Sequence record: MF327006
From: Shigella phage Sf20
Reading direction: 5' to 3' (one strand)
Length of the DNA: 64,000 nucleotides
Made by a program: the position numbers and the translations under genes. The notes below the pieces were generated by a model. It was not told the DNA's origin. It searched no databases and was given only the letters and a program-made list of their open reading frames with translations. Below, one piece after another: positions 22,798 through 63,593 of this stretch; the stretch's first letter is position 1, and every line of letters starts with the position of its first letter.

Positions 22798-22799
22798 TT

Positions 22800-24634: not shown

Positions 24635-24635
24635 T

Positions 24636-26122: not shown

Positions 26123-26138
26123 AGTATTTTCCTCAAAA

Positions 26139-26330: not shown

Positions 26331-26387
26331 AATATTATCCTCAATTTGTGGGAGAGTATTACCCCTCCCAATGATTGTTATGTTATA

Positions 26388-26708: not shown

Positions 26709-26725
26709 TTAGTCACCTCTCTTTA

Positions 26726-26905: not shown

Positions 26906-26939
26906 AATTGATTCTCCTAGTTCGTTTCGGTATGTGTGT

Positions 26940-26969
26940 AGTATAGGGGAGTTTAACCTCCCCTGTCAA
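26940..26969 (-). promoter_or_regulatory. early promoter with stem-loop spacer
   Basis: - strand: TTGACA, GGGGAGGTTAAACTCCCC, TATACT. Confidence 0.5.
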
Positions 26970-26977
26970 CAACTTTT

Positions 26978-27289: not shown

Positions 27290-27334
27290 TTTTGATTCTC
27301 CGTTTAAGAAAGTGTGTTTCGTTTTGATGTGTGT

Positions 27335-27363
27335 AGTATAGGGGATACGTGATCCCCTGTCAA
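27335..27363 (-). promoter_or_regulatory. early promoter with palindromic spacer
   Basis: - strand: TTGACA, GGGGATCACGTATCCCC, TATACT. Confidence 0.5.
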
Positions 27364-27376
27364 CAACTTTTTTGAA

Positions 27377-35108: not shown

Positions 35109-35507
35109 TTAACTTTCCAGAATATCGCGAGCTTCGTTACGATCCTTGATGATTTTCAAGACAAATTCCAGTTTTTCTTTGTTCAGCGTTCCATTTTCCA
35201 TTGCTTCTTTGACGGTAAACACTCCGCCACCTTGCCCGTATACAGTGACAGTGATTTCACCTAACATCGTGGTATGAAAACCGCCAATTTTCGGTGATTC
35301 GAAAGAAACAATTACCTCGCGAACAGTATTACCGTCGTTGATTTCTGAGAGGGTAATGTCGTTTTTGTAGGCGGTTGCTTTAACCATACGGATCAGCATA
35401 GTCTGATCTGGGGAGATGGTCATTTTGTCCATTGCATGTTGCAATGCAGCGTAACCGAAAACTTTAACGAAGTCCAGAACGTCTTTGCGAGTTTGAAATT
35501 TAATCAT
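35109..35507 (-). CDS. hypothetical protein (132 aa)
   Basis: ORF behind promoter-like element at ~35541-35569. Confidence 0.45.
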   Translation of the reverse strand: MIKFQTRKDVLDFVKVFGYAALQHAMDKMTISPDQTMLIRMVKATAYKNDITLSEINDGNTVREVIVSFESPKIGGFHTTMLGEITVTVYGQGGGVFTVKEAMENGTLNKEKLEFVLKIIKDRNEARDILES

Positions 35508-35540
35508 CTTGATACTCCTTAGTTGTTTTGGTATGGGAGT

Positions 35541-35569
35541 ATCTTACTACTCCCGTGATATGCTGTCAA
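35541..35569 (-). promoter_or_regulatory. early promoter overlapping stem-loop GGGAGTAGTAAGATACTCCC
   Basis: TTGACA on - strand with hairpin in the spacer/-10 region; same hairpin recurs at ~25541 and ~62470. Confidence 0.4.
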
Positions 35570-35794
35570 CTGCTTTTTTATGCAACCGCAAACATCAACA
35601 TTTGAACATTCTTGGCTGTCTGGCTTTCAAAGTTCTGACATTCTTTGATAATGTCCTCTACTTTCTCGCCGGAGATCTCCGCGTAAGTTTCGATTGCCAT
35701 TTTCAGTACCGCGTCAAAGTTGTTCATTTGATTCTCCTTAAAGTGTATTTCGTTTCGATGGGGGTATATTACTACCCCCGTTTCATGCTGTCAA

Positions 35795-36013
35795 CTACTT
35801 TTTAATGACAAGTTCGAATTTTGCTACCTTGCGTCCTCGTTTATTGAAAGCAACCCACGGACGGTTTTCAATGTAGAACAATTCTTCACCAATAATGAAT
35901 ACTGGCTGATTGTAAAGGCGACCCATCAGGTCACGCTGGCGAATGGTAGTAGATTCGTATACTTCGCCTACTACAAAGTGCTTGCTGATAGAGTCGGTGC
36001 AAGTAAATTTCAT
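35795..36013 (-). CDS. hypothetical protein (72 aa)
   Basis: ORF with promoter cassette upstream. Confidence 0.4.
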   Translation of the reverse strand: MKFTCTDSISKHFVVGEVYESTTIRQRDLMGRLYNQPVFIIGEELFYIENRPWVAFNKRGRKVAKFELVIKK

Positions 36014-36082
36014 TTTGATTCTCCTTTGTTTCGTTTCGATGGGGGTATATTACTACCCCCGTTATTCAGTGTCAACTACTTT

Positions 36083-36301
36083 TTACTTGTTGTATTCATT
36101 CCACCATTGGGTTAGCTTATCAATTATTTTTGTGTTTCTATCCAACTTCTCCCACCGTTTTCTAGGGTTTATCAACCGGAATAGGTAAGGTGTACTTGTT
36201 AAGTGAACTCGGTCAATGTAGTGATTGATGTACTGCTTTTCGATTCTAAGTTTCATCTTTTTACGATGAAAATATGCAATGACTTGTTCTTCTGTTTCCA
36301 T
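36083..36301 (-). CDS. hypothetical protein (72 aa)
   Basis: ORF with promoter cassette upstream. Confidence 0.4.
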   Translation of the reverse strand: METEEQVIAYFHRKKMKLRIEKQYINHYIDRVHLTSTPYLFRLINPRKRWEKLDRNTKIIDKLTQWWNEYNK

Positions 36302-38559: not shown

Positions 38560-38627
38560 AATAAAATCCTCACTTGTTTTTGATGGTTGTATTATAGCGG
38601 GGATTTCTCCCCGCGTCAACACTTATT

Positions 38628-40871
38628 TTACAGCTTGCAAGATGAGCACTCGCTAGCGTCTTCCGTACCATCTGCACCGTCGCGAACGTTCGCATAATAC
38701 AGGGTTTTCAGACCGTAATATTGAGCAAACAACATATCATCTAACACATCAGCAATATCGACTTTACCAGTCTTATAAGTGCTTGGATCGTATGATGTAT
38801 TGGAACTAATCGCCTGATCCACAAACTTCTGCATGATCGCTGCCAGTGTCAGATAGGGCTTGTTACCTTTCTTGATCAGTGTCCAAAGCAGGTCAATAAC
38901 ATCAGCATTATTCTCTACGTTCGGAATAACCTGATTAAATTGCCCTTCTTTCGATCCTTTAACCGATACAATCCCGCGAGGCGGTTCAATACCGTTTGTG
39001 CTGTTAGATACCTGAGAAGACGACTCACAAGGCATCAGAGCCGAAAGCGTACTATTACGAATGCCATATTTTTTCAGGTCTTCGCGCAGTTCTTCCCAAT
39101 CCATCTCATACACAGGATCAACCAGTTCATCTACTGTCTTTTTGTACCAGTCGATAGGCAGTTCACCGCGTCCATAACGTGTTTCGTGCATCAGTTCGCA
39201 AGCACCCTTCTCTTTAGCCAGTTGCACACTAGCCTTAATCAGAGCATATTGCAAGCGTTCAAACGTTTTATGCGTAAACTCGTTAGCGTCTTCATATGTG
39301 AAGAAATTATCCGCTAGATATGACGCAAAGTTAGTCACACCAACACCCAGAGAGCGACGTTTTTTGGCTGTCAGAGCTTGTTCTACAGGATAATCCTGAT
39401 AATCTAACAGGTTGTCAAGTGCACGCACCATAACCATAGCAATGCGTTCTACTTCTTCCATGTTTTCGATATCGAAATTACCTAAAACATATGCTGCCAA
39501 AGTACATAGGCTAATTTCTGAATCATCACGACCCATCGGTTTTGTAGGCAGAGCAATTTCACAACACAGGTTAGATTGTTTAATCGGTGCTACATTACGA
39601 ATAAACGCCCCGTGATTGTTCATGTTGTCTGTGAACGTTGGGTAGATTCGACCAGTGTTAAAACGTTCAATTGCCACCGCTAAAAACAGGTCTTCGGCTT
39701 TAACACGAGTTTTACGAACACTCGGATCTTTTTCCAGTTTTTCGTAAAGCTGGCGGAAACCTTCCTCATCTCGGAAGTATAGATCCCACAACAAGCCACC
39801 TGCAATATCTGGACTAAACAGAGTAATGTAATCCCGTTTAAGGAATCGCTCTACCATCAGGTTATTAATCTGTACGCCGTAGTCAAGATGGCGAATGCGG
39901 TTATCTTCCACGCCCTTATTGTTCTTTAACACAATCAGACTTTCAAACTCTAAATGCCACATTGGGTAATAGAGTGTCGCTGCCCCGCCACGAATACCGC
40001 CTTGTGAGCATGACTTAACGGCAGTCTGAAAATGTTTCCAGAATGGGATAACGCCAGTATGACGAACTTCACCATGCCCGATCTTAGATCCTTCCGCGCG
40101 AATCATGCCAGCGTTGATACCGATACCAGCACGCTTGCTAATATACTTAATGATTGCATTTGCGGTTTCATTAATACCCTGCAATGAGTCATCACTTTCA
40201 ATCACCACACACGAACTAAATTGGCGTGTTGGAGTACGCACACCCGCCATAATCGGAGTAGGCAGAGAGATTTGCTTATTCGCAACAGCATTATAAAAAT
40301 CAATCACATGTTCAAGTCGATTTTCTGTCTCTTCTTGATGCAAGCACATACCGATCAGCATATACGCAAATTGCGGTGTTTCAATGATTTTCTTAGTGCT
40401 GCGATCCTGAACAAGATATTTCTCTTTTAACTGCATCGCACCAGCATAGGTCATTTTAAAATCAAGTTTATGGTCGATGAATTTCTCCAGATATTCCACT
40501 TCTTCACGGGAATACTTTTGCAGAATTTCGCGATCATATTTTCCGGTTGCAATATTACGCTCAATATGGCTGTAAAAATCAATCGGTTGGAATTGACCGT
40601 ATACTGATTTGCGAAGCGCGAACATTGCAAGGTTACTTGCTACATATTGATAATCGGGTGTTTCTACAGTGATGTTATCTGCGGCGACCTTAATCAATAC
40701 TTTCTGGATATCATTGGTAGACATACCTTCTGTCAGAAGTGGTTCAACCATATCAAACAATTCATATGGATCAACGTTATGACCTTCGGCTGCCGCTTCC
40801 AGAATTTTCATCACTTTTTCTTTTTCAAACGGAACAGTCAGACCGGAAGACTTAACAACATTTTTAATCAT
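38628..40871 (-). CDS. nrdA: ribonucleotide reductase large subunit
   Basis: 747 aa; N-terminal ATP-cone, catalytic NLCCEI and C-terminal Cys pair CSSC. Confidence 0.9.
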   Translation of the reverse strand: MIKNVVKSSGLTVPFEKEKVMKILEAAAEGHNVDPYELFDMVEPLLTEGMSTNDIQKVLIKVAADNITVETPDYQYVASNLAMFALRKSVYGQFQPIDFYSHIERNIATGKYDREILQKYSREEVEYLEKFIDHKLDFKMTYAGAMQLKEKYLVQDRSTKKIIETPQFAYMLIGMCLHQEETENRLEHVIDFYNAVANKQISLPTPIMAGVRTPTRQFSSCVVIESDDSLQGINETANAIIKYISKRAGIGINAGMIRAEGSKIGHGEVRHTGVIPFWKHFQTAVKSCSQGGIRGGAATLYYPMWHLEFESLIVLKNNKGVEDNRIRHLDYGVQINNLMVERFLKRDYITLFSPDIAGGLLWDLYFRDEEGFRQLYEKLEKDPSVRKTRVKAEDLFLAVAIERFNTGRIYPTFTDNMNNHGAFIRNVAPIKQSNLCCEIALPTKPMGRDDSEISLCTLAAYVLGNFDIENMEEVERIAMVMVRALDNLLDYQDYPVEQALTAKKRRSLGVGVTNFASYLADNFFTYEDANEFTHKTFERLQYALIKASVQLAKEKGACELMHETRYGRGELPIDWYKKTVDELVDPVYEMDWEELREDLKKYGIRNSTLSALMPCESSSQVSNSTNGIEPPRGIVSVKGSKEGQFNQVIPNVENNADVIDLLWTLIKKGNKPYLTLAAIMQKFVDQAISSNTSYDPSTYKTGKVDIADVLDDMLFAQYYGLKTLYYANVRDGADGTEDASECSSCKL

Positions 40872-43463: not shown

Positions 43464-44309
43464 TTACGCTGTCAACTCTTTTTCAAAAGATTTTACGATA
43501 TACATTAAATTTCTAATTTCGGACGGTGGGATTGTCTCTGTCCACCCGTCCGGCATAACTTTTTGCGATACGTGGCGTGTTTTATTACTAAGTTTTTGTC
43601 GAACAATACCCTCTAATTTTAGGGGTATGTTTCCATCTTTAGTTGTTAACGTATGGAATATAAAGTGACGAACGGAAGACACGCTGGATTGCTGTTTCAT
43701 CCTTTCCTCGGCTTTTTTGTTAGTGATTCCGAACTTATACCCGACAATACAACCCCAATTATCAACCAGTTTTTGTATATAAAAGGTTCCTGGTTTTCTT
43801 TTATCATAACCTCCTTTTTGAGTGGGACATTTCGGACACTGCATATCATCTAAAGATGCGACATATTTGCCATGAACGCAGCAATCCATACTTAGATTCT
43901 TTTCTCTTGCATTAATATACCCATTAATAAATCCATTGGATTTTACTTTTTCATTATGAGAACAAAATTCATCAATTCGTATATTTGCTGATATAACATT
44001 TTTTCTTCTCATTCGTTCCATCCAACATTCTTGACAACCACCTCCCCCATTTTTAAGTATATCGATAGTGGTTAATTTTTGCTTGTGGTTTGGATTTAAT
44101 CCACAAGCAATTTTAATTTTAGATCGTACACCAGACCACTCATAGAATCCCAAATATATCATATCTCCGCTTTTTATTTTTGGCGAATTTAATGCTTCAT
44201 TTTCAATCTCAATTGGAGATTTTGAATTATAGTAATGGATATATTCTATATCTTTAGCAAATCTGGTGTTCATTTTGTCCTCCGTTGTTTCTATGCTTGC
44301 ATTATACAT
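43464..44309 (-). CDS. T5orf172/GIY-YIG-like domain protein with Cys-rich N-terminal region
   Basis: C-terminal GTFYIQKL...VGYKFGITNKKAEERMK...GWTETIPP resembles T5orf172 (MUG113) domain; N-terminal CQEC and CPKC pairs. Confidence 0.45.
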   Translation of the reverse strand: MYNASIETTEDKMNTRFAKDIEYIHYYNSKSPIEIENEALNSPKIKSGDMIYLGFYEWSGVRSKIKIACGLNPNHKQKLTTIDILKNGGGGCQECWMERMRRKNVISANIRIDEFCSHNEKVKSNGFINGYINAREKNLSMDCCVHGKYVASLDDMQCPKCPTQKGGYDKRKPGTFYIQKLVDNWGCIVGYKFGITNKKAEERMKQQSSVSSVRHFIFHTLTTKDGNIPLKLEGIVRQKLSNKTRHVSQKVMPDGWTETIPPSEIRNLMYIVKSFEKELTA

Positions 44310-46110: not shown

Positions 46111-46365
46111 TTAAATATCGAGAGTGTTGGTCGGTTCGTCGATCACTCCCTTCCTGAGCGTTCTATTTACTATACATTCTTGTGTGATCTTGTCAATAAT
46201 GGACACCGGAATATACTTCTGATAGTGACCATATTCTATAGAGTTTTCCTCTACAAACTGAGTTGTCGCTTCAAGATAAGTCAATCCCTCTTCAACAACC
46301 AGTTTTTCGATTGCAAGACCGTTTGCTGTTTTATTCGCGGCTTTTACCGCATGTTCATTAAGCAT
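46111..46365 (-). CDS. 33: gp33 late transcription co-activator
   Basis: YLEATTQFVEENSI matches T4 gp33; synteny 59-33-dsbA. Confidence 0.65.
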   Translation of the reverse strand: MLNEHAVKAANKTANGLAIEKLVVEEGLTYLEATTQFVEENSIEYGHYQKYIPVSIIDKITQECIVNRTLRKGVIDEPTNTLDI

Positions 46366-46633
46366 TGAACACCCGATCATAGAGTTCTACCGCTTCATCG
46401 CGTTCTGCTTCGAAGGTTTCGCGCTGTTGCTGGTGATACAGTTTAAACAGAATGCCCCACATTTTACCATCTACGCCTAATTCTTCTTTAGCACGCTGTT
46501 TGATCTCTTTGATCTTATCGCCATATGCTTCTTGAATGGTTTTCTGATCGCTGGCTTCTTTAATCAGTTGTGCCAGGGTGTTTCCGTGCACTGCTTCGTC
46601 AAATACTACTTTTTCTTTTTTCTGTTCAGTCAT
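46358..46633 (-). CDS. dsbA: DsbA dsDNA-binding protein
   Basis: VFDEAVHG...IKEASD...AKEELGVDGKM...FEAE...VELYDRVF match T4 DsbA. Confidence 0.8.
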   Translation of the reverse strand: MTEQKKEKVVFDEAVHGNTLAQLIKEASDQKTIQEAYGDKIKEIKQRAKEELGVDGKMWGILFKLYHQQQRETFEAERDEAVELYDRVFNA

Positions 46634-46637
46634 AATA

Positions 46638-47237
46638 TTAACCCTCTTTAGTCATTAATTGAAAACCACGTTCAGCTTTTGATATTTCGCTAGGACTTAA
46701 ATCGTCACCAACATATCCTAGCATCATTTCTCGGATAATGTCAAGTGCTTTTTCATCACCTGATTTTAACTCGAACTCAAGTTCATAATGAGCAGTGTCG
46801 CCCAATCCTTCGCCTACTTTGCCATAATAGAAAGTGTCTTTGCACATTTCCACTATACCACAACCCATATCTAGAGTCAATGACTTGCGATATGTCATTA
46901 CTTGCATTATTGCAGTGATATAGTCGGAGTTTACCCCTAGACAATCAATAAAATGGACGAACTCATCCCAATTTGAAAATGTCATTTCCTCGCGGTTGAA
47001 TAGTCCAGATTCATTATCACCCATTTTGACCATGATCTCTGATTTTCTACAGTCAAGTCGTGCATAAATTCCTTTTTGACGTAGCGCATGATCTTCGGTA
47101 TCATAATAAAATTCGTGTTTTAATATGTTATCTCGGTCTAATAGATTGTACCCGTCATACATTGCCACCCACAAATCACAGATTGTTTCTACACCATCCT
47201 GTGAATGGGCATAGTATTTTAATTCAAGTTCTTTCAT
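46638..47237 (-). CDS. CYTH-like (triphosphate tunnel metalloenzyme) domain protein
   Basis: N-terminal ExExK-like KELELKYY and a later acidic strand ELEFELK; ~200 aa. Confidence 0.45.
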   Translation of the reverse strand: MKELELKYYAHSQDGVETICDLWVAMYDGYNLLDRDNILKHEFYYDTEDHALRQKGIYARLDCRKSEIMVKMGDNESGLFNREEMTFSNWDEFVHFIDCLGVNSDYITAIMQVMTYRKSLTLDMGCGIVEMCKDTFYYGKVGEGLGDTAHYELEFELKSGDEKALDIIREMMLGYVGDDLSPSEISKAERGFQLMTKEG

Positions 47238-47247
47238 ATGTCAACCC

Positions 47248-48195
47248 TTAGAACTCACCAATTTTCTGCAACATTTTAACTAACGCATTTGTTACAAAAT
47301 AGTTATAAATTTTACCGCGTGGTGCTGGTTTAGATTTCTCCCATGCTAACAAAATTTCATATTCGATGTTATCAGGAATAAATTCAAAATCAATAAGTTC
47401 GCGGTTTTCGTCAAAGCGTCGTGCTTCTTCCTCTGTCATCAAAGACTTTGGATCTTCGGCATCGAAAATTTGCTCTAACCATTTGGTTGCAATTGGTTTA
47501 GCTCTTTCTCCTTCCAGTCGTGAGATAATGAAATCACTACGGCACTTGATCGAAGCCACACCGTCTTTTGCGTCACCCTTAACACATTTTACCATAAGGT
47601 CTTTGTAAGGGCTACCATATTTGCATTTCTTCCATGCTTTCTGTACTGGTGCCCACTGTTTCACATTTTTGTATTTGTGTAACTGTGTGTAGTCACCATC
47701 GCCGGAGTTGATTAGCACCTGGCGACCTTCTACAGAAAACTTTTTAGTTAACACAGCGATTATATCATCCGCTTCAACTTTGTCAACCTTAATAACGTGA
47801 TAAGGCATGTTCTCTTTAAACTCTTCGGTGATCTTATTGATCGCAGCAAAGATCATCTCCCAATCACGCGGATCTGCGTCTCGTTTTTCCTTACGGTTGC
47901 GTTTATAGTAAGGTGCGATATCACGTCGCCAGTAACCTTTGCTTGAATCAAAGGCAAGTACCGTAATTGGGTATTGCTCTTTGAATTTTGTCATATTATA
48001 ACGCATGGTGTCAAGGATAAGATGACGAATCATGCCTTCATTAATAGGATCTTCCGGTTTAAAGGTATGCGAGATAGTAGCAATCATAAGCTGCGACATA
48101 TCAATCAAATGCACACCTTCCGGCAGTTTATCTTCTGGATCATCAAAAAAATCATTAAGTGTAGCGGTAGTTTTTGTAAACGGGTTATACGTCAT
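47248..48195 (-). CDS. rnh: RNase H (5'-3' exonuclease, FEN family)
   Basis: GYWRRD, YYKRNR, VDKVEADDIIAV, SGDGDYTQLHKY, PPRGKIYNYF match T4 RNase H. Confidence 0.9.
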   Translation of the reverse strand: MTYNPFTKTTATLNDFFDDPEDKLPEGVHLIDMSQLMIATISHTFKPEDPINEGMIRHLILDTMRYNMTKFKEQYPITVLAFDSSKGYWRRDIAPYYKRNRKEKRDADPRDWEMIFAAINKITEEFKENMPYHVIKVDKVEADDIIAVLTKKFSVEGRQVLINSGDGDYTQLHKYKNVKQWAPVQKAWKKCKYGSPYKDLMVKCVKGDAKDGVASIKCRSDFIISRLEGERAKPIATKWLEQIFDAEDPKSLMTEEEARRFDENRELIDFEFIPDNIEYEILLAWEKSKPAPRGKIYNYFVTNALVKMLQKIGEF

Positions 48196-48197
48196 AA

Positions 48198-48383
48198 TTA
48201 AGTTCTCTCCACTCTCACAACAACATATTCGCCAAACGAGTTAGATACTTCACGATCATACCCGTATTTCTCCATAACTCGCAGAATTGCATTGTTTAAT
48301 TCGGCACGGAAATAATTATAATCCTTATCAGGGATTCTGTCAACTACCCATTTTGCACCTTCTGACAAATCAACTTTAACCAT
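48198..48383 (-). CDS. hypothetical protein (61 aa)
   Basis: ORF coupled to rnh. Confidence 0.35.
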   Translation of the reverse strand: MVKVDLSEGAKWVVDRIPDKDYNYFRAELNNAILRVMEKYGYDREVSNSFGEYVVVRVERT

Positions 48384-48421
48384 AATATATCATCCTCTTT
48401 TGTTTCTATCAAGCCTCATTT

Positions 48422-48429
48422 TATAAATA
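48422..48429 (+). promoter_or_regulatory. T4-type late promoter (TATAAATA) for gene 34
   Basis: Exact TATAAATA ~30 nt upstream of the gene 34 ATG; AAGGAGA RBS follows. Confidence 0.6.
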
Positions 48430-48457
48430 TGAACATACTATAAAAGGAGACCCAATA

Positions 48458-51400
48458 ATGGCAGATTTTTCTCAACATTTCAAGGCCACATTTGGCTTTG
48501 ACGCTGGTAATGAAAAGGTCGTCAATGTAGCATTGGCTGATAAGAATGTCAACACCGATGCGGTCAACGTTGAATTTTTCAATTACCATAATGGTATTAC
48601 TCAGTATGACACAACTCGCGGTTATGATCAATACGGAACTACAATCTATCAAAACCGTCCGTATTATGCAAAAGAAGATATCACAAAGCCAGCAGGTGAT
48701 TTTGACCCGACTAAATGGCAAGCACTGCGCACGGACCCACGTTGGGATTATATTGCAGCAACTTCCGGTGATACTCCTTTAAAGTCTGGTGATTATATCG
48801 CAGCAGATGGTCAATTTGCAAACTTGACTTTCTCTATGCCAACTAAACCAGCAGAGGGAGACACTATAACAGTAAAAGATATCGGTGGCAAGTGTGGTGT
48901 TAACGAATTATCGTTCTTGAGTTCAGGACATGAGTTTTACCATAACGGTAATGTGTATAACCGAAAATGGTATTGCACTACCCCGTATGCAATGAACTAT
49001 TTCATCTTTGTTCGTAATCGTTGGCATGTTTATCAGACGGGAACAGAGCCGCGCGGTGTGTACGCACAGCCAGCGATTGATGCTATTCAAATGCAGAATG
49101 GTGATCAGGTATTTCGTCGTAGTTCGTTGGGTAATATTACCTTAGTGCTTCCTAAGTTTGCCAACAATGGCGACATGATCCAGACTACAGACCTTGACGG
49201 ATTAACCGCAACCAACCACGTTACGGTTAAAGTTCATGAGCACGCAGAAGAACAATCAATTGGCACGTCCGGTCTAAAAGAGATTATCGGTAAGCGTAGC
49301 GGTCATGGTGTATTCATCTTTGACAAGACGGAAAACTTATGGCGTTTGTGGGATGGTGATCAGTCTGTTCGTCTTAAACCGATCATCGATGACACTCGCT
49401 TGCAACCTAATAGCTATGTTGCTGTATTTGGTGATCGTGATGTTACTCTGACGCTGCCGACCAATGTCGAGCCGGGTGATCGTATTCAAGTTTCTATGCA
49501 GTATATGCACGGAAACCAGAATTGCCGTATTATCACCGCCACAGAGGATACAAAAATCCTTATGCCGAAAAACATGGTTCAGTTTCCGAAGCGTAGCGAG
49601 TACCCATTCAACGGGACCGACACATGGAAGGAAGTGTCTGAATTGTCGTTCAATGCGGCTAGTGATTATGTACCTTATCTGGAGTTCTCTTATTCAGAAG
49701 GTGATGATGGTAAGAAATACTGGTTGGTGGCACATGCTCACCCGATTGTAGAACGAGTAGATCCGACTCGTAAAGATCGTGTTGGTGTAATTGCACTGGC
49801 TACCCAGGATGAAACAAACAAAAACCATGAAGAGAATCCTAGCGACGAAGTTGCGGTAACACCAAAAATGCTGGCTAATAAAACCGCCAACGAAACTCGA
49901 CGCGGTATTGCTCGCATTGCGACTCAAGCGGAAACGCATCAAGATACTGGTTCCAACTTCCTGGATGATGTTATCGTTACGCCTAAAAAGTTAAATGACT
50001 GTGTTGCTACCGAAGCCCGTCGTGGCGTGATGGAAATTGCAACCCAGCACGAAACCAATGAAGGTTTAGACGATACCCGCGCTATTACTCCTAAGAAATT
50101 AGAAGAACGTCGCGCTTCCGAAGATCTCGCTGGTATTGCTGAAATTGTTCAGGCTGGCGGTAGTGCTGCCGCTCGACGTGGCGAAGCTGGTACAGGGATC
50201 TATAACATCAACGACCATGTTAAAATTGTTACGCCACAAAACATCAACGAAGTCAAGGCGACCGAAACTTCCCGTGGTGTTGGCTATCTGGCAACTGACG
50301 CGGAAGTGCAAGGGGCTACAGAATCAACCCCGCAAGATGCTTTACTAATCACGACTCGCACGCTAACGAAACGTACTGCTACCGAATCGCGCACTGGTAT
50401 CGCTGAAATTGCAACTCAGGAAGAAACAAACTTAGGTCAAAGTGATAGCCATATCATCACGCCTAAAAAGCTGCATACTCGCCGCGCAACGGAAACTTTA
50501 CATGGTTTAGCAGAAATTGCAACTCAACCGGAATTTGACGCAGGTCTTGACGATGCTCGCATTTCTACCCCATTGAAGATTAAAACCTTCTTTGAGAATG
50601 CACAGCGTTTGAAAGTAGATCCGACTCAGGGGCTTAACCTTACTGGTGATTTGTGGCAAGGTATCATGATCAGCGGTCTGGATGCAACCGAAGACACAAA
50701 AGGTGTCGCTAAAGTTGCTACTACTCAGCTTACGGATGCTGGTCAAGATGATACTACAATCATCACGCCTAAAAAGCTGCAAGGCAAAAAGGCAACCGAA
50801 GGTAAAGAAGGTATTATCCGAGTTGGTACTCAAGCCGAAACCGTGGCTGGTGCACTGGCTAATGTAGCAATTTCTCCGAAGAACTTCAAATATGTTGTTC
50901 AGACAGAGGATACATGGAAAGCAACCGAATCGCGTCGTGGCTTCTTGAAAGTTGCTACTCAGGAAAACTGTTTTGTTGGTGATAATCTGCAAGGTTCTAC
51001 TCAAGAACTAGGAAACTACCAGCATGACGGAATTGCTGTTACCCCGAAAGGATTAAACTACGCACTTGCTAATTTCTTACCTAAGATGGCAACCGCTCAG
51101 AATAGTTTGAAATTGGGTAACGTAGAGGCCGCTAAATGGGCGCGTAGAGACATTGACCAGACCATAGAGAGCAATTACACGTTTAATAAAAAAGTTAACG
51201 TGAAGGGCGATTTAGAGTGCTTAAAATCAGGTTCCTTTGAAACTCTGTCTGTGACTAAGAACTCGACCGATGTTCCGAGTAATGGTCATCTGGTGTTGGG
51301 TGAGCGTGGAGTTGACGGTCACACCGGAATTACTCTGCATGGCACAACCGCATCGGAAGGCATGAAAAACTCTTGGTCGATTATCGTTGGTGGTACGGGA

Positions 51401-52530
51401 ACAGCGCAAGTTGTTGATAGTGATGCTATCGCTTTCGGTAAAATCAATGATGGTGGAGTCGTTGAGCATTACGCCTTTGCTATGAAACACAATGGCGACG
51501 CGACAGCATATAGAGACTTTATTGCAGGTCGTAACCTGTATGCGAAACAAGGCGGTTTATACATTGTTGACCAGTCTAATCCGGCAATGACTCGTTCCCC
51601 AGATGGTATGCTGAATATCGGTCACGGTGGAAGTGTTAACATCAAGGCAGGTCATCAAACGTTAACTACAGAGATCGCCGGACAGAAATATCAGATCGTA
51701 CACGCAGGAAACGCTGACGAAGTTCTTAACCGTCAGTTTGTTAAGAATGCTGGCGATACAATGGTCGGTAAGCTGACTATGGATAATGCGCCTATTGTTT
51801 CTGTTAAGCATGAAGCTAGCGCGGCAACCGCTCCGGCAATCGGTAACATCGGTTTCTGGAATATGCGAGTTACTACCCAGAACATCAAAGAAACTTATCC
51901 AGAGAAGAAAAACGGTACTCTGATGCAATGGGGTACTGACGCGGACGGGCTTACCCAGCTTTGGTCCCCTGATGGTACTCATAAACATTATATCCGTTCC
52001 GGTACTGGCGGGGACAGAAATATCAGATCGTACACGCAGGAAACGCTGACGAAGTTCTTAACCGTCAGTTTGTTAAGAATGCTGGCGATACAATGGTCGG
52101 TAAGCTGACTATGGATAATGCGCCTATTGTTTCTGTTAAGCATGAAGCTAGCGCGGCAACCGCTCCGGCAATCGGTAACATCGGTTTCTGGAATATGCGA
52201 GTTACTACCCAGAACATCAAAGAAACTTATCCAGAGAAGAAAAACGGTACTCTGATGCAATGGGGTACTGACGCGGACGGGCTTACCCAGCTTTGGTCCC
52301 CTGATGGTACTCATAAACATTATATCCGTTCCGGTACTGGCGGTCAATGGACCGCATGGGGTGAAATTTACACCAAACAGAACAAACCTACCGCTCAGGA
52401 AATCGGGGCAGTAGTTGCAGAAGGTGGTTTAATGAACTCTATGACGGTTCGTGATTGGATCAAAGTTGGTAATGTTAAAATCATCGCCAATAATCTGACT
52501 CGTACCGTAGACTTTATCTGGGAAGACTAA
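48458..52530 (+). pseudogene. 34: long tail fiber proximal subunit gp34, reading frame interrupted by a 332-bp tandem duplication (ORFs 48458..52108 and 52093..52530)
   Basis: 1216-aa ORF ends ...GTHKHYIRSGTGG + out-of-frame tail; next ORF repeats MVGKLTMDNAP...HYIRSGTGG then continues; deleting one repeat copy restores ~1246 aa (T4 gp34 is 1289 aa). Confidence 0.75.
51680..52343. repeat. perfect tandem duplication, 2 x 332 bp (51680-52011 and 52012-52343)
   Basis: Both copies read identically by eye from GGACAGAAATATCAGATCG... to ...CCGTTCCGGTACTGGCGG; 332 is not a multiple of 3. Confidence 0.85.
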
Positions 52531-52563
52531 TTAAAGGGGGCGAAAGCCCCCTATGGGGTTATT

Positions 52564-53703
52564 ATGACACAAGATATAGAATTACGCAACACTGGAATTA
52601 GGTTTGCGCATTTCGACGAAGACTCTGCGACATTTACCAGCATTTCAGAAAATAACTCTGTGATGTATAAGCTGGAAGTGCGCGGATCTAATGCGGATTC
52701 TACCAAACCAGCAAGGATTAGATTTAATGGAGTGGAGATCGTTGGCGCTGGCTATGAAAATGGCCTAAATTTGAAAGTTCTTACTCCAACTGGACAACTA
52801 CACGAAGAAAAGGTATTCTATGGTCGCGGTGCTGTTTTGGCAATGCGTGATTATCTTTCTTTGCTGAAAGGTGATTATATCATTGCGATGGCAACTCATG
52901 GAGAATTGTTTGCAGATCCGATAAGTGATGTTGTATTTTCTAAGATGGGATCTGTATCATTCCCGAATCACATTTTGTTACAGCAAATGCCTCGTGTATC
53001 ATATGCAGCAATTTATTCTACTAAAATGGGTAAAATTGTGTGCGAAGGGATGCAAGCGACCCACGGGGAAGGACAAGATTCATCTATACAAATTGAGAAG
53101 GTTTATGATACTATAGATGATCTTGCTATAACAGGAACACCACAACGATTTTTAGATTATCCGGTTGAGTATGTTAGCGAAGATGCCGAACATTTCGAGC
53201 TAATACAATGGCCTCATGATGAGATCAGCGCACCACTTGAATATTTTAACATAAAGGCAGGTGACAAACTATCATTATCATTTGAATTGTTCCGTGATAG
53301 TGCCGCAGCCGCAGCCAACGTAACAGCGCGTTTCTATCACAACTATTTTACTGATGGACAATACAAAACTGGCGTTCGATACAATGCCAGCAAAAAAGAT
53401 CAATGGGAAAAGTTTGAAGCCGTCTATACCGTGCCGGAAGGTGTCGATAGTGTAGTAACTGGTTGTATCAGATATCCAACCAACTCAAATGAAGGTATTG
53501 TTAAAATTAGAAACATACTAATAACGCCGATCAGTGGAGTCGTCAAAACTACTGGTCCTACTTCATTTGGTGTTAATGGTGTTAGAACAACTCATATTCA
53601 GGATAACGGTGATTTTACTAACCCTGTAATGAGTCTTCTTAAGCTGCCTAGAGACAATAAACATATCACATCCAACAACTTTAAAGAGTTCGATGTTGAT
53701 TAA
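52564..53703 (+). CDS. 35: long tail fiber hinge connector gp35
   Basis: Size (379 aa) and synteny 34-35-36-37. Confidence 0.65.
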   Translation: MTQDIELRNTGIRFAHFDEDSATFTSISENNSVMYKLEVRGSNADSTKPARIRFNGVEIVGAGYENGLNLKVLTPTGQLHEEKVFYGRGAVLAMRDYLSLLKGDYIIAMATHGELFADPISDVVFSKMGSVSFPNHILLQQMPRVSYAAIYSTKMGKIVCEGMQATHGEGQDSSIQIEKVYDTIDDLAITGTPQRFLDYPVEYVSEDAEHFELIQWPHDEISAPLEYFNIKAGDKLSLSFELFRDSAAAAANVTARFYHNYFTDGQYKTGVRYNASKKDQWEKFEAVYTVPEGVDSVVTGCIRYPTNSNEGIVKIRNILITPISGVVKTTGPTSFGVNGVRTTHIQDNGDFTNPVMSLLKLPRDNKHITSNNFKEFDVD

Positions 53704-53713
53704 CATTTTTAAC

Positions 53714-53745
53714 AAGCCGATCCATGTGGTCGGCTTTATTTTTAT
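53714..53745 (+). terminator. terminator hairpin after gene 35 (AAGCCGATC...GGTCGGCTT + T-run)
   Basis: Stem-loop followed by TTTATTTTTAT. Confidence 0.5.
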
Positions 53746-53864
53746 ACAGTTGGTTAAATTGTAACCAAAACGAAGAAAGATCTTTAGAATATAGAAAAGT
53801 TTGTTTCGGTTAAAAATTAGTCAGTGCCGTAGGCACGTCGCGAAGCGATATTTTGTTAACATTC

Positions 53865-53872
53865 TATAAATA
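53865..53872 (+). promoter_or_regulatory. T4-type late promoter (TATAAATA) for gene 36
   Basis: Exact TATAAATA ~35 nt upstream of the gene 36 ATG. Confidence 0.55.
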
Positions 53873-53905
53873 CTCGGAACTATAACTAATTTTTGAGGTT
53901 ACTTT

Positions 53906-55396
53906 ATGGCAGATTTGAAACATGGATCTACTGTAGGCGGATCTCCCATTTGGACGCAAGGAAACTTGACGATCCAGCCAGCGGGGGATCAGCTTTTCTA
54001 CAAAGGTCATAAAATCTATACCGCTTTTGATAGACCTTCGGCTACCGATTTTGATGCTGTTAGTGCATCCGAAGGTGGCACATTTCAAAAGCAAGTTCAT
54101 TTCGAGGAAGGTTTAAGCGTAGGTAGCGCATCGGCTGGAGAAACCAAAAAGAATGGTATCTTTAAAGGTCAGAGCGACGCTGCTAATTTTGACGGCGTAA
54201 GCTGGGGTTTGCATTCATGGAAGTCAATCGGCTTTGTTAATGCCCGTGATGGCGTTATCATGGCGTATATTGACACCACAACGGGCGAATTTAAGTCTAA
54301 AGGGACTATCGAAGGGACAACCATTAAAGACACAGGTCAACGCGTCTATAGCCCTGTTAATAAACCAACGAATAATGATTTAGATTTGGTGTCTCGTCGC
54401 GGTGATACCCTAACAGGAACATATAATTTAAACACTGTCACTGTTAAACTATCGGTTGATTCGAAATTAATTGCAAGGGAACGTGATTTAATTAATTTTG
54501 ATGCGACTAAGATCTATTATGGTAACGTTCTTGATACGTTGGTCTTCCGAAGTAAAGATGAGCCTACCATTTTTGTTAATGGCAGAGAAGGTCGTTTTTA
54601 TCACACCAACAATAAACCAACTAAAGCCGATGTTGGGCTAGGCAATGTCACCAATGATGCACAGGTTAAACGTGCTGGTGATATTATGGAAGGTAACTTG
54701 CAAGCGCCTAGAATGTTGGCGACAAACGATCCTGCTGGTCCTAATGAATTGGTTCGTTTGAGCTACTTTGAGAGAAAATCAATGGTAGCAAATCCAACCA
54801 TCATTGGAAACGTTGATTGGAACACTCTTATTAATCGCGGTATCTATCGTGTGGAAAATGCTGGGTCGGGTACTAATAAACCGTCTGATAGCTATTATAA
54901 TGGCGTTTTGATGGTATATCGCCCAGAAGATGCGGTCGGTACTCGTCGAATTGTTCAGGTGTATTATCCTGAATCTATTGACCATCCGATGTGCTGGCGT
55001 TCGTGTTCTAATGAATCCTGGACTGCATGGAACTATGTAGATCACCGTAAATTAGCCGATATTCGCTATGTTAACGTAACTGGCGATACCATGACAGGAC
55101 CGTTAACTGTTCCGGCTGCAAATGGCGTTAGAACAGCTAAAACTAACTATAACGGGGATAACTGTTATGCGGCGTTAAGCGGTGCTGATGGCACTGCGAT
55201 GATTCACCGCATTAGTGATATTAAAGGGACCGAAAAGCTGGGGATCACCCACGACTCAAAGGTCGTGTTTTTCCGTTCTAGAAACAATACTCAAACCGTG
55301 GACCGCTATCAGCTTTATCATGAAGGTAATAAACCTACTCCGGCTGATGTTGGAGCGGTTCCACTTAATGCGGTGATTGATTTTGGTACTTTCTAA
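53906..55396 (+). CDS. 36: long tail fiber distal subunit gp36 (extended, 496 aa)
   Basis: N-terminus MADLKHGSTVGGSPIWTQGN matches T4 gp36 MADLKVGSTTGGSVIWHQGN. Confidence 0.8.
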   Translation: MADLKHGSTVGGSPIWTQGNLTIQPAGDQLFYKGHKIYTAFDRPSATDFDAVSASEGGTFQKQVHFEEGLSVGSASAGETKKNGIFKGQSDAANFDGVSWGLHSWKSIGFVNARDGVIMAYIDTTTGEFKSKGTIEGTTIKDTGQRVYSPVNKPTNNDLDLVSRRGDTLTGTYNLNTVTVKLSVDSKLIARERDLINFDATKIYYGNVLDTLVFRSKDEPTIFVNGREGRFYHTNNKPTKADVGLGNVTNDAQVKRAGDIMEGNLQAPRMLATNDPAGPNELVRLSYFERKSMVANPTIIGNVDWNTLINRGIYRVENAGSGTNKPSDSYYNGVLMVYRPEDAVGTRRIVQVYYPESIDHPMCWRSCSNESWTAWNYVDHRKLADIRYVNVTGDTMTGPLTVPAANGVRTAKTNYNGDNCYAALSGADGTAMIHRISDIKGTEKLGITHDSKVVFFRSRNNTQTVDRYQLYHEGNKPTPADVGAVPLNAVIDFGTF

Positions 55397-55401
55397 TTTT
55401 A

Positions 55402-55427
55402 GCGGGGATTATCTCCCCGCTTTTCTA
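55402..55427 (+). terminator. hairpin AGCGGGGATTATCTCCCCGCT + T-run
   Basis: GC-rich stem-loop between genes 36 and 37. Confidence 0.45.
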
Positions 55428-55466
55428 AATAATGTTATTCTAATAACCGTTTAAGGATTTTATAAA

Positions 55467-58406
55467 ATGGCAGATTTAAGCAGAATCCAATTTAAACGTA
55501 CTAGCACTAAAGGCCGTCGACCTGATGCTGGTACGATGAATCCGGGGGAATTGGCAATCAACCTTGCGGATCAATATCTTCTTACTAAAAATGATTCCGG
55601 TGCTATTATCAATTTAAGTTGTCCTCCGGTTTATGACCGCGATGTTACAATGGCAGGTAAGGTTAAAGGTAATAATTATATCTTAAGTAAAACCGCCAAC
55701 TATCTGGAAGATCAGACAGCGAGAGACCTTAACTACTTTGGTGCTTTCCGTACCAATGGTCTTGACGGTTTTCTCGAACTCACGCTAAACGTTCCTCATT
55801 CTTCTGGTGTTCAGCATGGTCGAGGATTTACTTTCCAGTATGGACACACAGGAAACCGTGTAGAAACTTATGGTTATAATAAAGAAGGACAAAAAGCATT
55901 TAGCTATAAAATGTATCATGAAGGTGATAAACCTACCCCATCGGAATTGAACGTTTATAGCAAACAAGAAGTTGACCGTATGTTTGTTAAAACCGTTAAA
56001 CTTGCTACAGTTCCTGTTGATATCGTTGACGGTTATTTTAAATTAGCAACTGCAATGATTCCGCAAAACGGTCGTAGTGTATTTTTCCGTATTCATGGTG
56101 GTAACGGATATAACGTTACCGCATACGATCAAGTTGATATTGTAGAAATTGTTATTCGCAGTGGAAATAATCGTCCTAAAGGTGTTAACGTTATTGCATA
56201 CCGACGAAATACAAACAAATCATTTGATGTTTTGGCTGTTAATACTTCTGGTGATAACTATGATATCTACGTGAAATATCAGCGTTACACTGATAACGTT
56301 ATTGTTGAATTTGGTAAAAGTGTTGATGTTGATCTGGTAGTCCATGACGTTCCCGACTTTGTTGTTGATCGTCCTGCTGGCGATAATGTTATTGGCGGTC
56401 GCGCGGTAACTCTTTTCAACACAGAAAATAAACGTGGTGTGTTGAGTTTTGACGATAACACACAAAATAGTTATGATATTGTTCACTTGAGTAATGATAA
56501 AGGTACTGGTCGGAAATATATTCGTAAATTCCGCAGTAACTATAATGAAATGATCTGGCATGAGACGGTTCAAGGTTCTACCTATCGACTCGCCACGGGT
56601 AGTACCGATGCTCAGGAGATTCTAACCGTTGAATCTGTTAGCTCAATTGCTGGAACTCATAAAGGTAATATTATTTCTGGACGTATGCTGTTAAATGGCG
56701 GTAGTAATGTTATTACCTTGCGGCGTCCTGCTGGTCAATCCAACCATATTGCGTTTCAAGATAATCGTACTGGAGATATTACCCGTCAAGGATGGATCGG
56801 TTATGCCAATGCTGATACTAACATTTTTGAATGGTATAGTGATGTAGGTGGCAGTTCTATTCGTCAACATATTGACGGACAGATCGAACTTGCAACCGGT
56901 AACACAAAACGCGTTTATACTAACGCTCAATTCATCTCAATGAATAGCGACGCCTACCGCATGCTCTACGGTAATTATGGTGCATTCTGGCGTAATGACG
57001 GCGTTAAAGTTTATCTTCTTTCTACTGCCGAAAATGATAAATTGGGCGGGTGGAATGCCTATCGTCCATTCATTTATGATTTAACTTCCGGTAACGTTCA
57101 ATTAGGCGGTGATGGTAACGAAGAAGCATTAACGTTAGAACGTGCTTCTCGTGCCGCTCGATTTAGTAATGACGTTTACATTAAGAAAGGGCTTTTGACT
57201 TTCGACGCTGGTCGTGCTGGATCTCGCGATTATATTCGATTTAATCATTGGGGTGATAGCAATAATGCTCGTGATAACGTTTTGTACATAGAAGATAGTC
57301 AAGGCCGACATTTTAGTACAGAACGTGCGATGGGTACTGGTGCTCTTAAAGCATACTTCTTAGGCGATCTTGAAGTCGGTGGTAAGTTTACTTGGGGTAA
57401 AAATACAGCTACATCTAGCTTTAATATCCGTGCATGGGGTGCTGATGCTCGTAAACAGGTATTAGAATGTGCTGATGAAAGCGGTTGGCATTGGTATACC
57501 CAACGACCGGGCGGTCCTGGTACTGATGCAATTGAATTTTCTATTAACGGTACGGTTAAGCCTAAAGCAATTCATACTGGCGGCAATATCACTATCAACG
57601 GTGCTGATATTGAGTTTAAACGCGCTGGCAATAAGCATTTATGGTTTAGAGATCCAAACGGATTAGAATTGGGTTTGATTTATTGTGATGATGCTGGTGT
57701 TATTCGTGTCCGTGGTGAGAAGTCGACCGAAGTGTGGAAATTCTCGGCAAAACAGATTCATTTAGAAACGGGTACTGCTGGTAACGGTGTTGGTTTAATC
57801 CGTGGTGCAGTTGGTGGTGGTGCGTGGACTCAATGGAGAGACCGTGGTACTGGCTTACAGGTTGACTGCCAACAATCAGAAAACTCAGCACACAACATAT
57901 GGCGAGCGACTCATCAAGGTAAGTACCATCTTGCAGCAATGGGTGTTCATGCATCTGGTGGTAGTGTTGCTAATACCGTTGTTCGCTTACATGTTCATGA
58001 CTCAAACTATGATTTCACTGCTGTTGGTGACTTCACCGCAGGTCGTAACGGTTCGTTTAACGATGTGTACATTCGTTCTGATGCTCGCCTTAAAATCAAC
58101 AAGGAAGAGTATAAAGAGAATGCCACCGATAAAGTTAATCGCTTAACTGTATACACCTATGACAAGGTTAAATCTTTAACCGACCGTACTGTCATTGCTC
58201 ATGAAGTTGGCATTATCGCACAGGATCTTGAGAAAGAATTGCCGGAAGCAGTAACAACCTCGAAGATCGGAGACGGTGATACACCAGAAGAGATCTTAAC
58301 AATTTCTAACTCTGCTGTCAACGCTCTTTTAATTAAGGCGTTTCAGGAAATGAGCGAAGAATTGAAAGCCGTTAAAGCTGAACTAGCGGAACTTAAAAAG
58401 AATTAA
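55467..58406 (+). CDS. 37: long tail fiber distal subunit / receptor-binding protein gp37 with C-terminal intramolecular-chaperone-like domain
   Basis: N-terminus MADLSRIQFKRTSTKGRRPDAG...GELAINL matches T4 gp37; C-terminal ~110 aa begins SDARLK and ends in a coiled coil, resembling peptidase S74 chaperone domains. Confidence 0.8.
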   Translation: MADLSRIQFKRTSTKGRRPDAGTMNPGELAINLADQYLLTKNDSGAIINLSCPPVYDRDVTMAGKVKGNNYILSKTANYLEDQTARDLNYFGAFRTNGLDGFLELTLNVPHSSGVQHGRGFTFQYGHTGNRVETYGYNKEGQKAFSYKMYHEGDKPTPSELNVYSKQEVDRMFVKTVKLATVPVDIVDGYFKLATAMIPQNGRSVFFRIHGGNGYNVTAYDQVDIVEIVIRSGNNRPKGVNVIAYRRNTNKSFDVLAVNTSGDNYDIYVKYQRYTDNVIVEFGKSVDVDLVVHDVPDFVVDRPAGDNVIGGRAVTLFNTENKRGVLSFDDNTQNSYDIVHLSNDKGTGRKYIRKFRSNYNEMIWHETVQGSTYRLATGSTDAQEILTVESVSSIAGTHKGNIISGRMLLNGGSNVITLRRPAGQSNHIAFQDNRTGDITRQGWIGYANADTNIFEWYSDVGGSSIRQHIDGQIELATGNTKRVYTNAQFISMNSDAYRMLYGNYGAFWRNDGVKVYLLSTAENDKLGGWNAYRPFIYDLTSGNVQLGGDGNEEALTLERASRAARFSNDVYIKKGLLTFDAGRAGSRDYIRFNHWGDSNNARDNVLYIEDSQGRHFSTERAMGTGALKAYFLGDLEVGGKFTWGKNTATSSFNIRAWGADARKQVLECADESGWHWYTQRPGGPGTDAIEFSINGTVKPKAIHTGGNITINGADIEFKRAGNKHLWFRDPNGLELGLIYCDDAGVIRVRGEKSTEVWKFSAKQIHLETGTAGNGVGLIRGAVGGGAWTQWRDRGTGLQVDCQQSENSAHNIWRATHQGKYHLAAMGVHASGGSVANTVVRLHVHDSNYDFTAVGDFTAGRNGSFNDVYIRSDARLKINKEEYKENATDKVNRLTVYTYDKVKSLTDRTVIAHEVGIIAQDLEKELPEAVTTSKIGDGDTPEEILTISNSAVNALLIKAFQEMSEELKAVKAELAELKKN

Positions 58407-61674: not shown

Positions 61675-62433
61675 TTACTTGCAAACGTATTGATCTACAT
61701 CAATTGCGCCACCGAATGTAGGATGACGTTTTTCGAATCGAATAGTTCCGTCGTTTGGTTCGAAAACGGAGTATTCATATAGATCTTTCTTGCCAACATT
61801 CTTATAAAACCCGCCTTTAGTCATAACGGTTTCTTGTACGTTTGCTTTGTGTACGTTGTATTCATCAATGTATACAAAATCAACCATCTTCCCATTTTTA
61901 ATGGTTACTTTAAGATCTCCTGGTTGGTTTCCATATTTTGCATACAGTGGGGCTTCTTTAATTTTGGTGGAAATTCCATCTTTCATACTCCACTCATAAC
62001 GAACGGTGCATTGATAGGTAAAAGTTTCGACCTTCGGTTCTTCTACCACTTTTGCTTCCTGTTTCGGTTGTTCTTCTTCAACCTTCGCAGAAGTCTCTGA
62101 ATAGCTTTCTGACGCGGTTTCTTCTTTAGGTAATACATTCATCAAGTTTTGGATTTGAGCGTTATATACAGCCTCCAGTGGCTGAATCTGCCCGATATTG
62201 ATCATTGTATCACGAACAGTTTTATTCCAGTTGCGTTGCTCTTGTTTAAGAGACGGATCAATCTTAACAGCCTTAACATACACCTCATGAAGTTTAGAGT
62301 CCAGTGCGGAGATAGACTCATTAGCACAAATAAACTTCTCTGATTTGGTAGTAGCTTTAGCGCAATCAAAGGACGCAGCGTTAGCACCGAAAGCAGTAGC
62401 AGAAAGAACGATAGCAGCGATAATGTTTTTCAT
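61675..62433 (-). CDS. secreted protein with DUF1311 (LprI-like) N-terminal domain
   Basis: Signal peptide MKNIIAAIVLSATAFGANA; FDCAKATTKSEKFICANESISALDSKLHEVY resembles the DUF1311 C...C...L.Y signature. Confidence 0.5.
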   Translation of the reverse strand: MKNIIAAIVLSATAFGANAASFDCAKATTKSEKFICANESISALDSKLHEVYVKAVKIDPSLKQEQRNWNKTVRDTMINIGQIQPLEAVYNAQIQNLMNVLPKEETASESYSETSAKVEEEQPKQEAKVVEEPKVETFTYQCTVRYEWSMKDGISTKIKEAPLYAKYGNQPGDLKVTIKNGKMVDFVYIDEYNVHKANVQETVMTKGGFYKNVGKKDLYEYSVFEPNDGTIRFEKRHPTFGGAIDVDQYVCK

Positions 62434-62507
62434 AATATATTCCTCAGTGTTTTGTCTTGATGGGAGTATCTTACTACTCCCTTAATCCGGTGTCAACTAC
62501 TTTTAAA

Positions 62508-62768
62508 TTATTTTCGCCATTCACCGGAAACAATAAAGTTTGTAAAGTGAACGTGGTCCGTGATAACGTCATTAAGTACCATATGCGGATATGCTTTAGT
62601 GTAATCACGTTTACGATCAGTCATCCAACCAACGAAAGTCGGTGCAAAGTACGGCACACCGTCAGATGATGCCATATTAAACCATTTATCAGCCATAAAT
62701 GCAGCCGCCCTAAGATTTTTAATTGAAGTAGTGCGACTAATTTCAAAAACTTTATCGGTAAAATTCAT
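62508..62768 (-). CDS. hypothetical protein (86 aa)
   Basis: ORF behind promoter cassette at ~62470-62500. Confidence 0.4.
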   Translation of the reverse strand: MNFTDKVFEISRTTSIKNLRAAAFMADKWFNMASSDGVPYFAPTFVGWMTDRKRDYTKAYPHMVLNDVITDHVHFTNFIVSGEWRK

Positions 62769-63028
62769 TTTAAGCCCCCCGCTCGTGCATTAATACGCAT
62801 TTTCTGCATAGCCATGATCTGGTTTACTGCTTCTTCTTTACGTTCTTGCGTGATAACGTGACCAGATTCCGTAAACTCTCCCGCAACTTCTTCTACGATC
62901 TCGCGAACTTGAGAACGTCCAAAGATGCGGTTTCCTTCGTAGCTCATAAATTCAGTCACTACTTGCTCGATAGATTTCATGTGATTCTCCTTCTTTCGTT
63001 TGGTATGGGAGTATAATACTACTCCCAT
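62765..63028 (-). CDS. hypothetical protein (87 aa)
   Basis: ORF behind promoter cassette at ~63015-63045. Confidence 0.4.
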   Translation of the reverse strand: MGVVLYSHTKRKKENHMKSIEQVVTEFMSYEGNRIFGRSQVREIVEEVAGEFTESGHVITQERKEEAVNQIMAMQKMRINARAGGLK

Positions 63029-63044
63029 TTCTTTACGTCAACAA

Positions 63045-63206
63045 CTATTTTAAATTATTTTCGACCTTCACCCATTCCGCGTATTCTTGCGCGGCTACTT
63101 TCGGATTTAGTCCGTCTTCGTACATTGCATCAAGTAATTCTTTGTCGGTGGGCTTATACCCTAGATAAGCCTCCACCTGATTTTTCCAAATTTTATACCA
63201 GTTCAT
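63045..63206 (-). CDS. hypothetical protein (53 aa from internal Met)
   Basis: Start chosen to abut the upstream gene stop; the ORF-track start has no RBS. Confidence 0.3.
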   Translation of the reverse strand: MNWYKIWKNQVEAYLGYKPTDKELLDAMYEDGLNPKVAAQEYAEWVKVENNLK

Positions 63207-63210
63207 ATTA

Positions 63211-63483
63211 TCACCAGTCAAGAGCGCGTGTCTCTGCGTCTTCCCATGCTTGATCCATAACAGCCTTGAAAACATATTCTAAAGTATCATCTTTAGAGAA
63301 TCCGAAGATTTTAGACGGAATATCTTCAATTGCTACTCCCGCAACTTCTGCATTACGCGCTTGACAATAATGCAACTCTAAGTTATCGAGATAGCGACCG
63401 CCTAATTTCTCCATATCATCCCAGCATTTCCAGTAACCTACTTTATTTGCAATTGCTAACACTTTGCTGTTTTCGTTGCTCAT
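63211..63483 (-). CDS. hypothetical protein (90 aa)
   Basis: Start MSNENSKV with AAGGAGA RBS directly downstream of a promoter. Confidence 0.45.
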   Translation of the reverse strand: MSNENSKVLAIANKVGYWKCWDDMEKLGGRYLDNLELHYCQARNAEVAGVAIEDIPSKIFGFSKDDTLEYVFKAVMDQAWEDAETRALDW

Positions 63484-63593
63484 CTTTGATTCTCCTTTTG
63501 TTTGGTATGTGTGTATTATGCGAGGCTGGATTCGTGAAGTCAACAACTTTTTAAAATAAAAAAGCCGACCACAAGGATCGGCTTAATAATCAG

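Follow-up and report, generated by a model that had tools for sequence, protein, structure and literature searches.

A perfect 332-bp tandem duplication in tail-fibre gene 34 of the Shigella phage Sf20 record is very probably a sequence-construction error

The deposited sequence of Shigella phage Sf20 (accession MF327006; PMC12533011) carries a 332-bp tandem duplication within gene 34, which is annotated as encoding the proximal subunit of the long tail fibre. We analyzed a window of 64,000 nucleotides from this record, and the evidence points strongly to an error in the building of the deposited sequence rather than to a property of the phage. The real Sf20 most probably has one copy of the repeated unit and a normal gp34 of 1246 residues. 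The following features define the gene 34 region.

48458 to 52108, plus strand: gene 34 fragment of 1216 aa, consisting of native residues 1-1185 and a 31-aa out-of-frame tail
51680 to 52011, plus strand: copy 1 of the 332-bp unit, coding for gp34 residues 1075-1185 in the native frame
52012 to 52343, plus strand: copy 2 of the 332-bp unit, identical to copy 1, with a novel junction between 52011 and 52012
52093 to 52530, plus strand: 145-aa ORF corresponding to native gp34 residues 1102-1246 (the last 145)
52564 to 53703, plus strand: gene 35 (hinge connector), intact and immediately downstream of gene 34

A sequence-only reading had placed two perfectly identical copies at 51680-52343, and two programs and a string comparison bore this out. 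Tandem Repeats Finder reported one array over this interval with a period of 332, 2.0 copies, 100% matches, 0 indels and a score of 1328, and a second repeat finder agreed on the array. Direct comparison showed that 51680-52011 and 52012-52343 lie head-to-tail and are 100% identical, with none of the base differences between copies that could have overturned the earlier interpretation. The run of period-332 identity is exactly 332 nt long, and the unit boundaries are unique and without microhomology. At the left flank CGCC precedes the GGAC of the unit, at the junction GCGG is followed by GGAC, and at the right end GCGG is followed by TCAA. The junction 30-mer, at 52011/52012, consists of TTCCGGTACTGGCGG followed directly by GGACAGAAATATCAG. 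Within the 64-kb window there are two perfect tandem duplications with a period of 30-1000, whereas 382,478 bases of relatives contain none, and therefore chance cannot produce the gene 34 repeat.

The length of the unit determines its effect on the gene. Division of 332 by 3 leaves a remainder of 2, in agreement with the earlier claim that the duplication splits the reading frame. Ribosomes coming from copy 1 read copy 2 one base off the native frame and encounter a stop 31 codons past the junction. ORF analysis recovered both the 1216-aa and the 145-aa frames that the sequence-only reading had described, and deletion of one 332-bp copy yielded a single gp34 ORF of exactly 1246 aa, where that reading had expected about 1246. 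This is also the length of RB49 gp34, with which the restored protein is colinear over 1246 aa with 10 substitutions. Without restoration, the gene aligns to RB49 gp34 over residues 1-1185 in one frame and over residues 1075-1246 in another. Thus, gp34 as recorded is missing its C-terminal 61 residues and has 31 nonsense residues in their place. This 1216-aa product is deposited as AUV63935.1 (UniRef100_A0A2K9VNJ5), "long tail fiber subunit, proximal [Shigella phage Sf20]", and the 145-aa ORF is absent from the protein collection as a separate product. The two forms also differ at the peptide level: the native full-length protein contains SGTGGQWTAWGEIYTK, and the duplication junction would encode SGTGGDR. 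The surrounding gene order (rnh, p247, 34, 35, 36, 37, t) is the same in the window and in RB49.

The second perfect duplication lies 34 kb from the gene 34 repeat, in alt, and went unmentioned in the earlier finding on gene 34. Its features are as follows.

17625 to 17772, minus strand: perfect tandem duplication of 74 bp in alt, two copies (17625-17698 and 17699-17772), with 1 nt of boundary ambiguity
17564 to 19333, minus strand: truncated Alt (ADP-ribosyltransferase) of 589 aa, consisting of native residues 1-545 and a 44-aa out-of-frame tail
17208 to 17675, minus strand: 155-aa ORF corresponding to the C-terminal 155 residues of native Alt

This repeat also breaks the frame (74 divided by 3 leaves 2), and its junction reads GCCGCCAAAAA followed by TTCACCGCGAG. 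The 589-aa product is deposited as AUV63874.1 (UniRef100_A0A2K9VNI9), "ADP ribosyltransferase". Removal of one 74-bp copy restores an Alt of 683 aa, as in RB49 and all relatives. The site spans 727 bp, not 801 bp, in 58 of 58 phage records, and among ten fetched loci the sequence is single-copy and Alt is 683 aa without exception. No other observation argues as strongly as the alt duplication for a systematic error in the construction of the sequence.

Copy number at gene 34 was examined in the same group of phages. Sf20 is classified in the genus Krischvirus, species Krischvirus RB49, and a colinear alignment joins the window to RB49 positions 95190-160205, with 94-98% identity. Single-copy relatives were located using gene 35 as the anchor. 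A 2-kb probe matched 58 Krischvirus records, and the 30 that were listed each span 1669-1673 bp, compared with 2001 bp when the duplication is present. A 120-nt probe centered on the junction found an unbroken match in none of 53 phage records; its halves map to opposite ends of one unit in 47 records, and the other 6 match one half only. The 332-bp unit is present in exactly one copy in all 14 fetched loci, which include isolates and metagenome scaffolds, and the junction 30-mer is absent from loci L001-L016. Every locus that holds the complete gene (12/12) encodes a gp34 of 1246 aa.

Assemblies that carry the same allele as Sf20 also have a single copy. Restored Sf20 gp34 agrees in all 1246 residues with gp34 of Logan contig SRR17241506_40518 (L005), which is independent of the Sf20 record. 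A further Logan contig, SRR17241499_191665, is 100% identical to window positions 51396-55122 when one copy is left out. Identity of 100% also holds for contig SRR17241521_60949 over 46170-51792, and this contig crosses the left unit boundary without the branch that would be expected from the junction in a k = 31 graph. We also compared the unit boundaries with strain SNPs, because the two should coincide if the unit had been shared by two strain-specific contigs. Common variants occur at 52009 and 51676-51688, and none falls exactly at the flanking bases.

Searches of other collections returned no copy of the junction. The 40-mer and 24-mer spanning it were unmatched in IMG/VR, as was the 24-mer in JGI metagenome contigs, a result that is uninformative given that a single-copy control was also unmatched in IMG/VR, probably because the pattern includes a rare synonymous variant at 52009. 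This variant, GGC at 52009 (and 52341), is shared among the covering loci only by Logan contigs L001 and L005; the other 12 differ, and RB49 alignments consequently end 3 nt short of the unit end. The gene 34 region had no match in E. coli genomes and plasmids. A protein homology search with the chimeric gp34 C-terminus found no match despite a 236-member cluster and is not counted as evidence. One partial gp34 of 1244 aa, from a 3751-bp contig, is listed under the name "hypothetical protein [Bacillus atrophaeus]" (MCG8398965.1 / WP_239815997.1), and the bacterial assembly behind it was apparently contaminated with Krischvirus DNA.

The rest of the window reads cleanly. Besides gp34 and Alt, approximately 100 RB49 proteins match the window, each in a single frame and nearly all at full length, and therefore poor base quality in general is not the cause of the frame disruptions. 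The exceptions are two accessory proteins that were unmatched, p240, which aligned over its C-terminal part only, and p200, which lacked its last 8 residues. The unmatched proteins, RB49 p186 and p192, have no counterpart at ~19655 and ~22074, and their absence is ordinary accessory-gene variation. The region 43570-44272 has no DNA alignment to RB49, and the 485-aa endonuclease RB49p240 matches there over residues 280-485 at 41% identity. In relatives this slot holds different genes (82+182 aa, 269 aa, a 392-aa CapR-like gene and others); it is a variable homing-endonuclease slot.

Several other features of the window were recorded. The proteins encoded downstream in the fibre cluster are entered as AUV63937.1 (gp36) and AUV63938.1 (gp37). 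An exact-sequence cluster look-up assigned these products and the 1216-aa form of gp34 to Sf20; in a gene-position index, the 1216-aa and 145-aa ORFs and gp37 had no entry. The distal fibre subunit gp37 (gene 37, 55467-58406) is 73% identical to RB49 gp37 and forms a singleton protein cluster. A mosaic patch of 36 SNPs covers the gene 36/37 border (55123-55904) relative to the otherwise identical contig L001. Inverted repeats of 74 nt with 81% complementarity lie 51 kb apart in intergenic DNA, with one arm (2495-2568) downstream of a dprA-like gene and the other (53750-53823) between genes 35 and 36. Direct repeats of 43-79 nt form families between small early genes at 19629-27374, 35501-36092, 38580-38630 and 62428-63552. 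Each consists of a G+C-rich stem-loop and then GTCAACA...TTTTT, and they resemble the promoter-early stem-loop cassettes known from RB49-type phages. Table 2 of PMC12533011 lists the Sf20 genome at 169,232 bp, the value given for phage Brandy, and the protein collection gives 163,982 bp; the former is probably a table error.

The sequence-only reading had offered three explanations for the gene 34 repeat, namely an assembly artefact, a mixed population, or an unstable duplication. The single-copy relatives and the alt lesion favor the first, and the other two are much less likely. The properties of a false duplication were found at this site: the copies are identical, with arbitrary boundaries (perfect identity and zero microhomology), neither close relatives nor independently assembled copies of the allele have the repeat, and the record holds a further lesion of the same type (74 bp twice in alt). 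The properties of an adaptive duplication were not: the unit is not a multiple of 3, its right boundary falls within the conserved C-terminal domain, and the repeat is confined to one isolate with no variation in copy number (one copy per fetched locus). Moreover, Sf20 was reportedly plaque-purified on Shigella flexneri (Doore et al. 2018, J Virol), and a plaque-purified isolate must adsorb.

We propose that two overlapping assembly pieces, either contig ends or the ends of a circularly permuted assembly, may have shared 332 bp. If these pieces were joined end to end with the overlap untrimmed, then the shared stretch would be written twice, though the exact joining step is something we infer. 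The same joining fault with a 74-bp overlap could have produced the alt repeat. Arbitrary piece ends would give perfect copies and boundaries without microhomology. The two unit lengths bear no relation to codons or to domains. An overlap of 332 bp does not correspond to a standard k-mer overlap, and a simple de Bruijn end overlap therefore fails to account for the gene 34 repeat; our proposal assumes an overlap-type assembler or a manual join. The value 74 equals k-1 for k = 75, a speculative match that leaves 332 unexplained.

The best-surviving alternative, which we nevertheless consider unlikely, is that the gene 34 duplication is real but defective. T4-like phages form tandem duplications and are highly recombinogenic, and unstable tandem duplications are known from classical genetics. 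Illegitimate recombination in the course of T4-type replication could have given rise to an unstable duplication present in a fraction of the Sf20 lysate. The duplication would be kept by co-infection and phenotypic mixing with wild-type gp34, would be lost repeatedly through homologous recombination across the 332 bp, and the assembler would simply have happened to write the duplicated path. The zero divergence between copies fits a very recent event, and tail-fibre tandem duplications are documented in EfV12-phi1 (PMC6365445) and T4 gene 37 (Tetart 1996, cited there). In addition, a graph-based (de Bruijn) assembler requires junction-supporting reads to write a duplicated path, and such reads could stem from a real minority variant or from chimeric library molecules. 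Against this, the repeat shifts the frame of a gene on which adsorption depends, so that carriers are not self-propagating and the consensus should not show them. With the alt lesion, two rare, independent events would both have to reach high frequency. Microhomology is missing from the junction, and the duplication does not occur in the 58 relatives or in any fetched assembly. Finally, three Logan contigs with the exact allele, which may or may not come from Sf20, cross the unit boundaries unbranched. The broader proposition that both duplications (332 bp in gene 34 and 74 bp in alt) were real molecules abundant in the sequenced Sf20 lysate is more doubtful still. If true, the record would have captured a T4-type phage that often forms tandem duplications independently of homology and whose lethal variants persist through co-infection and phenotypic mixing, and would offer a modestly interesting view of illegitimate duplication in this group.

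It is far less credible that the duplication is real, fixed and tolerated, with two fragments jointly supplying gp34 or with recoding that yields a longer fibre containing a 110-residue repeat. T4 gene 60 provides a precedent in its translational bypassing, and the 1216-aa and 145-aa ORFs together cover every native residue with an overlap of 84 residues. Yet neither signal that such an arrangement might use was found. The 96 nt from the junction to the stop contain no slippery X XXY YYZ heptamer and no homopolymer run (51990-52108 scanned). The 145-aa ORF has no Shine-Dalgarno sequence, its start being preceded by GCTGGCGATACA directly before the ATG, and such sequences are present at genes 34, 36 and 37 (AGGAG, GAGG and AGGA, respectively). 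Neither recoding nor a two-piece gp34 has support.

The position of the cut also speaks against a tolerated duplication. The last ~97 residues of gp34 align to T4 gp34 1186-1288 (PDB 4UXE, 5NXF, 9X3R; E = 1e-10), and the right boundary of the duplication lies inside this homologous region, not at a domain border. In T4, the gp34 C-terminus is a heavily intertwined trimer that joins the distal half-fibre, and its end contacts gp35 and gp36 at the fibre knee (PMC5537660). The cut in the Sf20 record falls within the conserved C-terminal domain of such a trimer. Further, gp34 length is constant at 1246 aa across the complete loci, and among the other listed members of the gp34 protein cluster (236 members), 13 of 14 are 1246 aa and one is the 1244-aa partial form. 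The parallel lesion in alt has no comparable rationale.

Equally hard to credit is an alteration made after assembly, through manual editing or rotation of the record or an in-silico change to the window, which from sequence alone would be indistinguishable from an assembly artefact and would suit a pair of exact two-copy duplications, unrelated in length, in a sequence that is clean elsewhere, but the 1216-aa and 589-aa products are already in NCBI and UniProt under Sf20 accessions, and the lesions were therefore present in the deposited record and not added to the window later.

Given that a construction error is by far the best explanation, gene 34 of Sf20 is almost certainly ordinary and the biological import of the repeat is small. 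The consequences concern the record. The GenBank entry for Sf20 contains at least two false tandem duplications and needs correction, and the remaining 100 kb of the genome beyond the window may hold more instances. AUV63935.1 and AUV63874.1 are truncated chimeras with nonsense tails, and as corrupted database proteins they could mislead comparisons of tail fibres and host range as well as counts of pseudogenes.

The Sf20 repeats can be compared with three kinds of known duplication. Classical unstable duplications of T4 include those of the rII region and the Hp17 amplifications at short homologies. The Sf20 repeats resemble them in occurring in a T4-type phage, in being direct repeats that homologous recombination could remove, and in having undiverged copies. 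The classical duplications originated at short homologies and were selected, in regions that were non-essential or under selection, whereas the Sf20 repeat has zero junction homology, breaks an essential gene and has no conceivable selection behind it.

Duplications of tail-fibre genes are a second point of reference. EfV12-phi1 has 1.8-kb tail-fibre duplications that keep the frame and are backed by read depth, PCR and long reads (PMC6365445), and His-box duplications in T4 gene 37 are attributed to Tetart et al. 1996, as far as that work is cited in PMC6365445. Like these, the Sf20 repeat belongs to a myovirus and doubles, head to tail, a stretch from within a long tail-fibre gene. The T4 gene 37 and EfV12-phi1 duplications are in frame, lie in or near the receptor-binding part, and vary in copy number. 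In contrast, the Sf20 duplication is out of frame, affects the proximal subunit, cuts a conserved domain and would destroy the protein.

The third kind is the false duplication left by an untrimmed overlap. Phage genomes that are circular or circularly permuted come out of assemblers with repeated ends (CheckV, PMC8116208), phage contigs may over-extend past 100% of genome length, for which a dot-plot check is advised (Phage Annotation Guide, PMC8785237), and wrongly filled gaps give rise to neighbouring false duplications and corrupted gene models (PMC9516828). Classic k-mer end repeats differ from those of Sf20 in that they sit at contig termini and are 55, 77, 99 or 127 long; the Sf20 repeats are internal and measure 332 and 74 bp, and for this reason we assume either an assembler of the overlap type or a join or rotation made afterwards. 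In their other properties the Sf20 repeats are like the untrimmed-overlap false duplications in these reports, with perfect copies, arbitrary boundaries, relatives that lack them, damage to conserved genes and repeated occurrence within one record.
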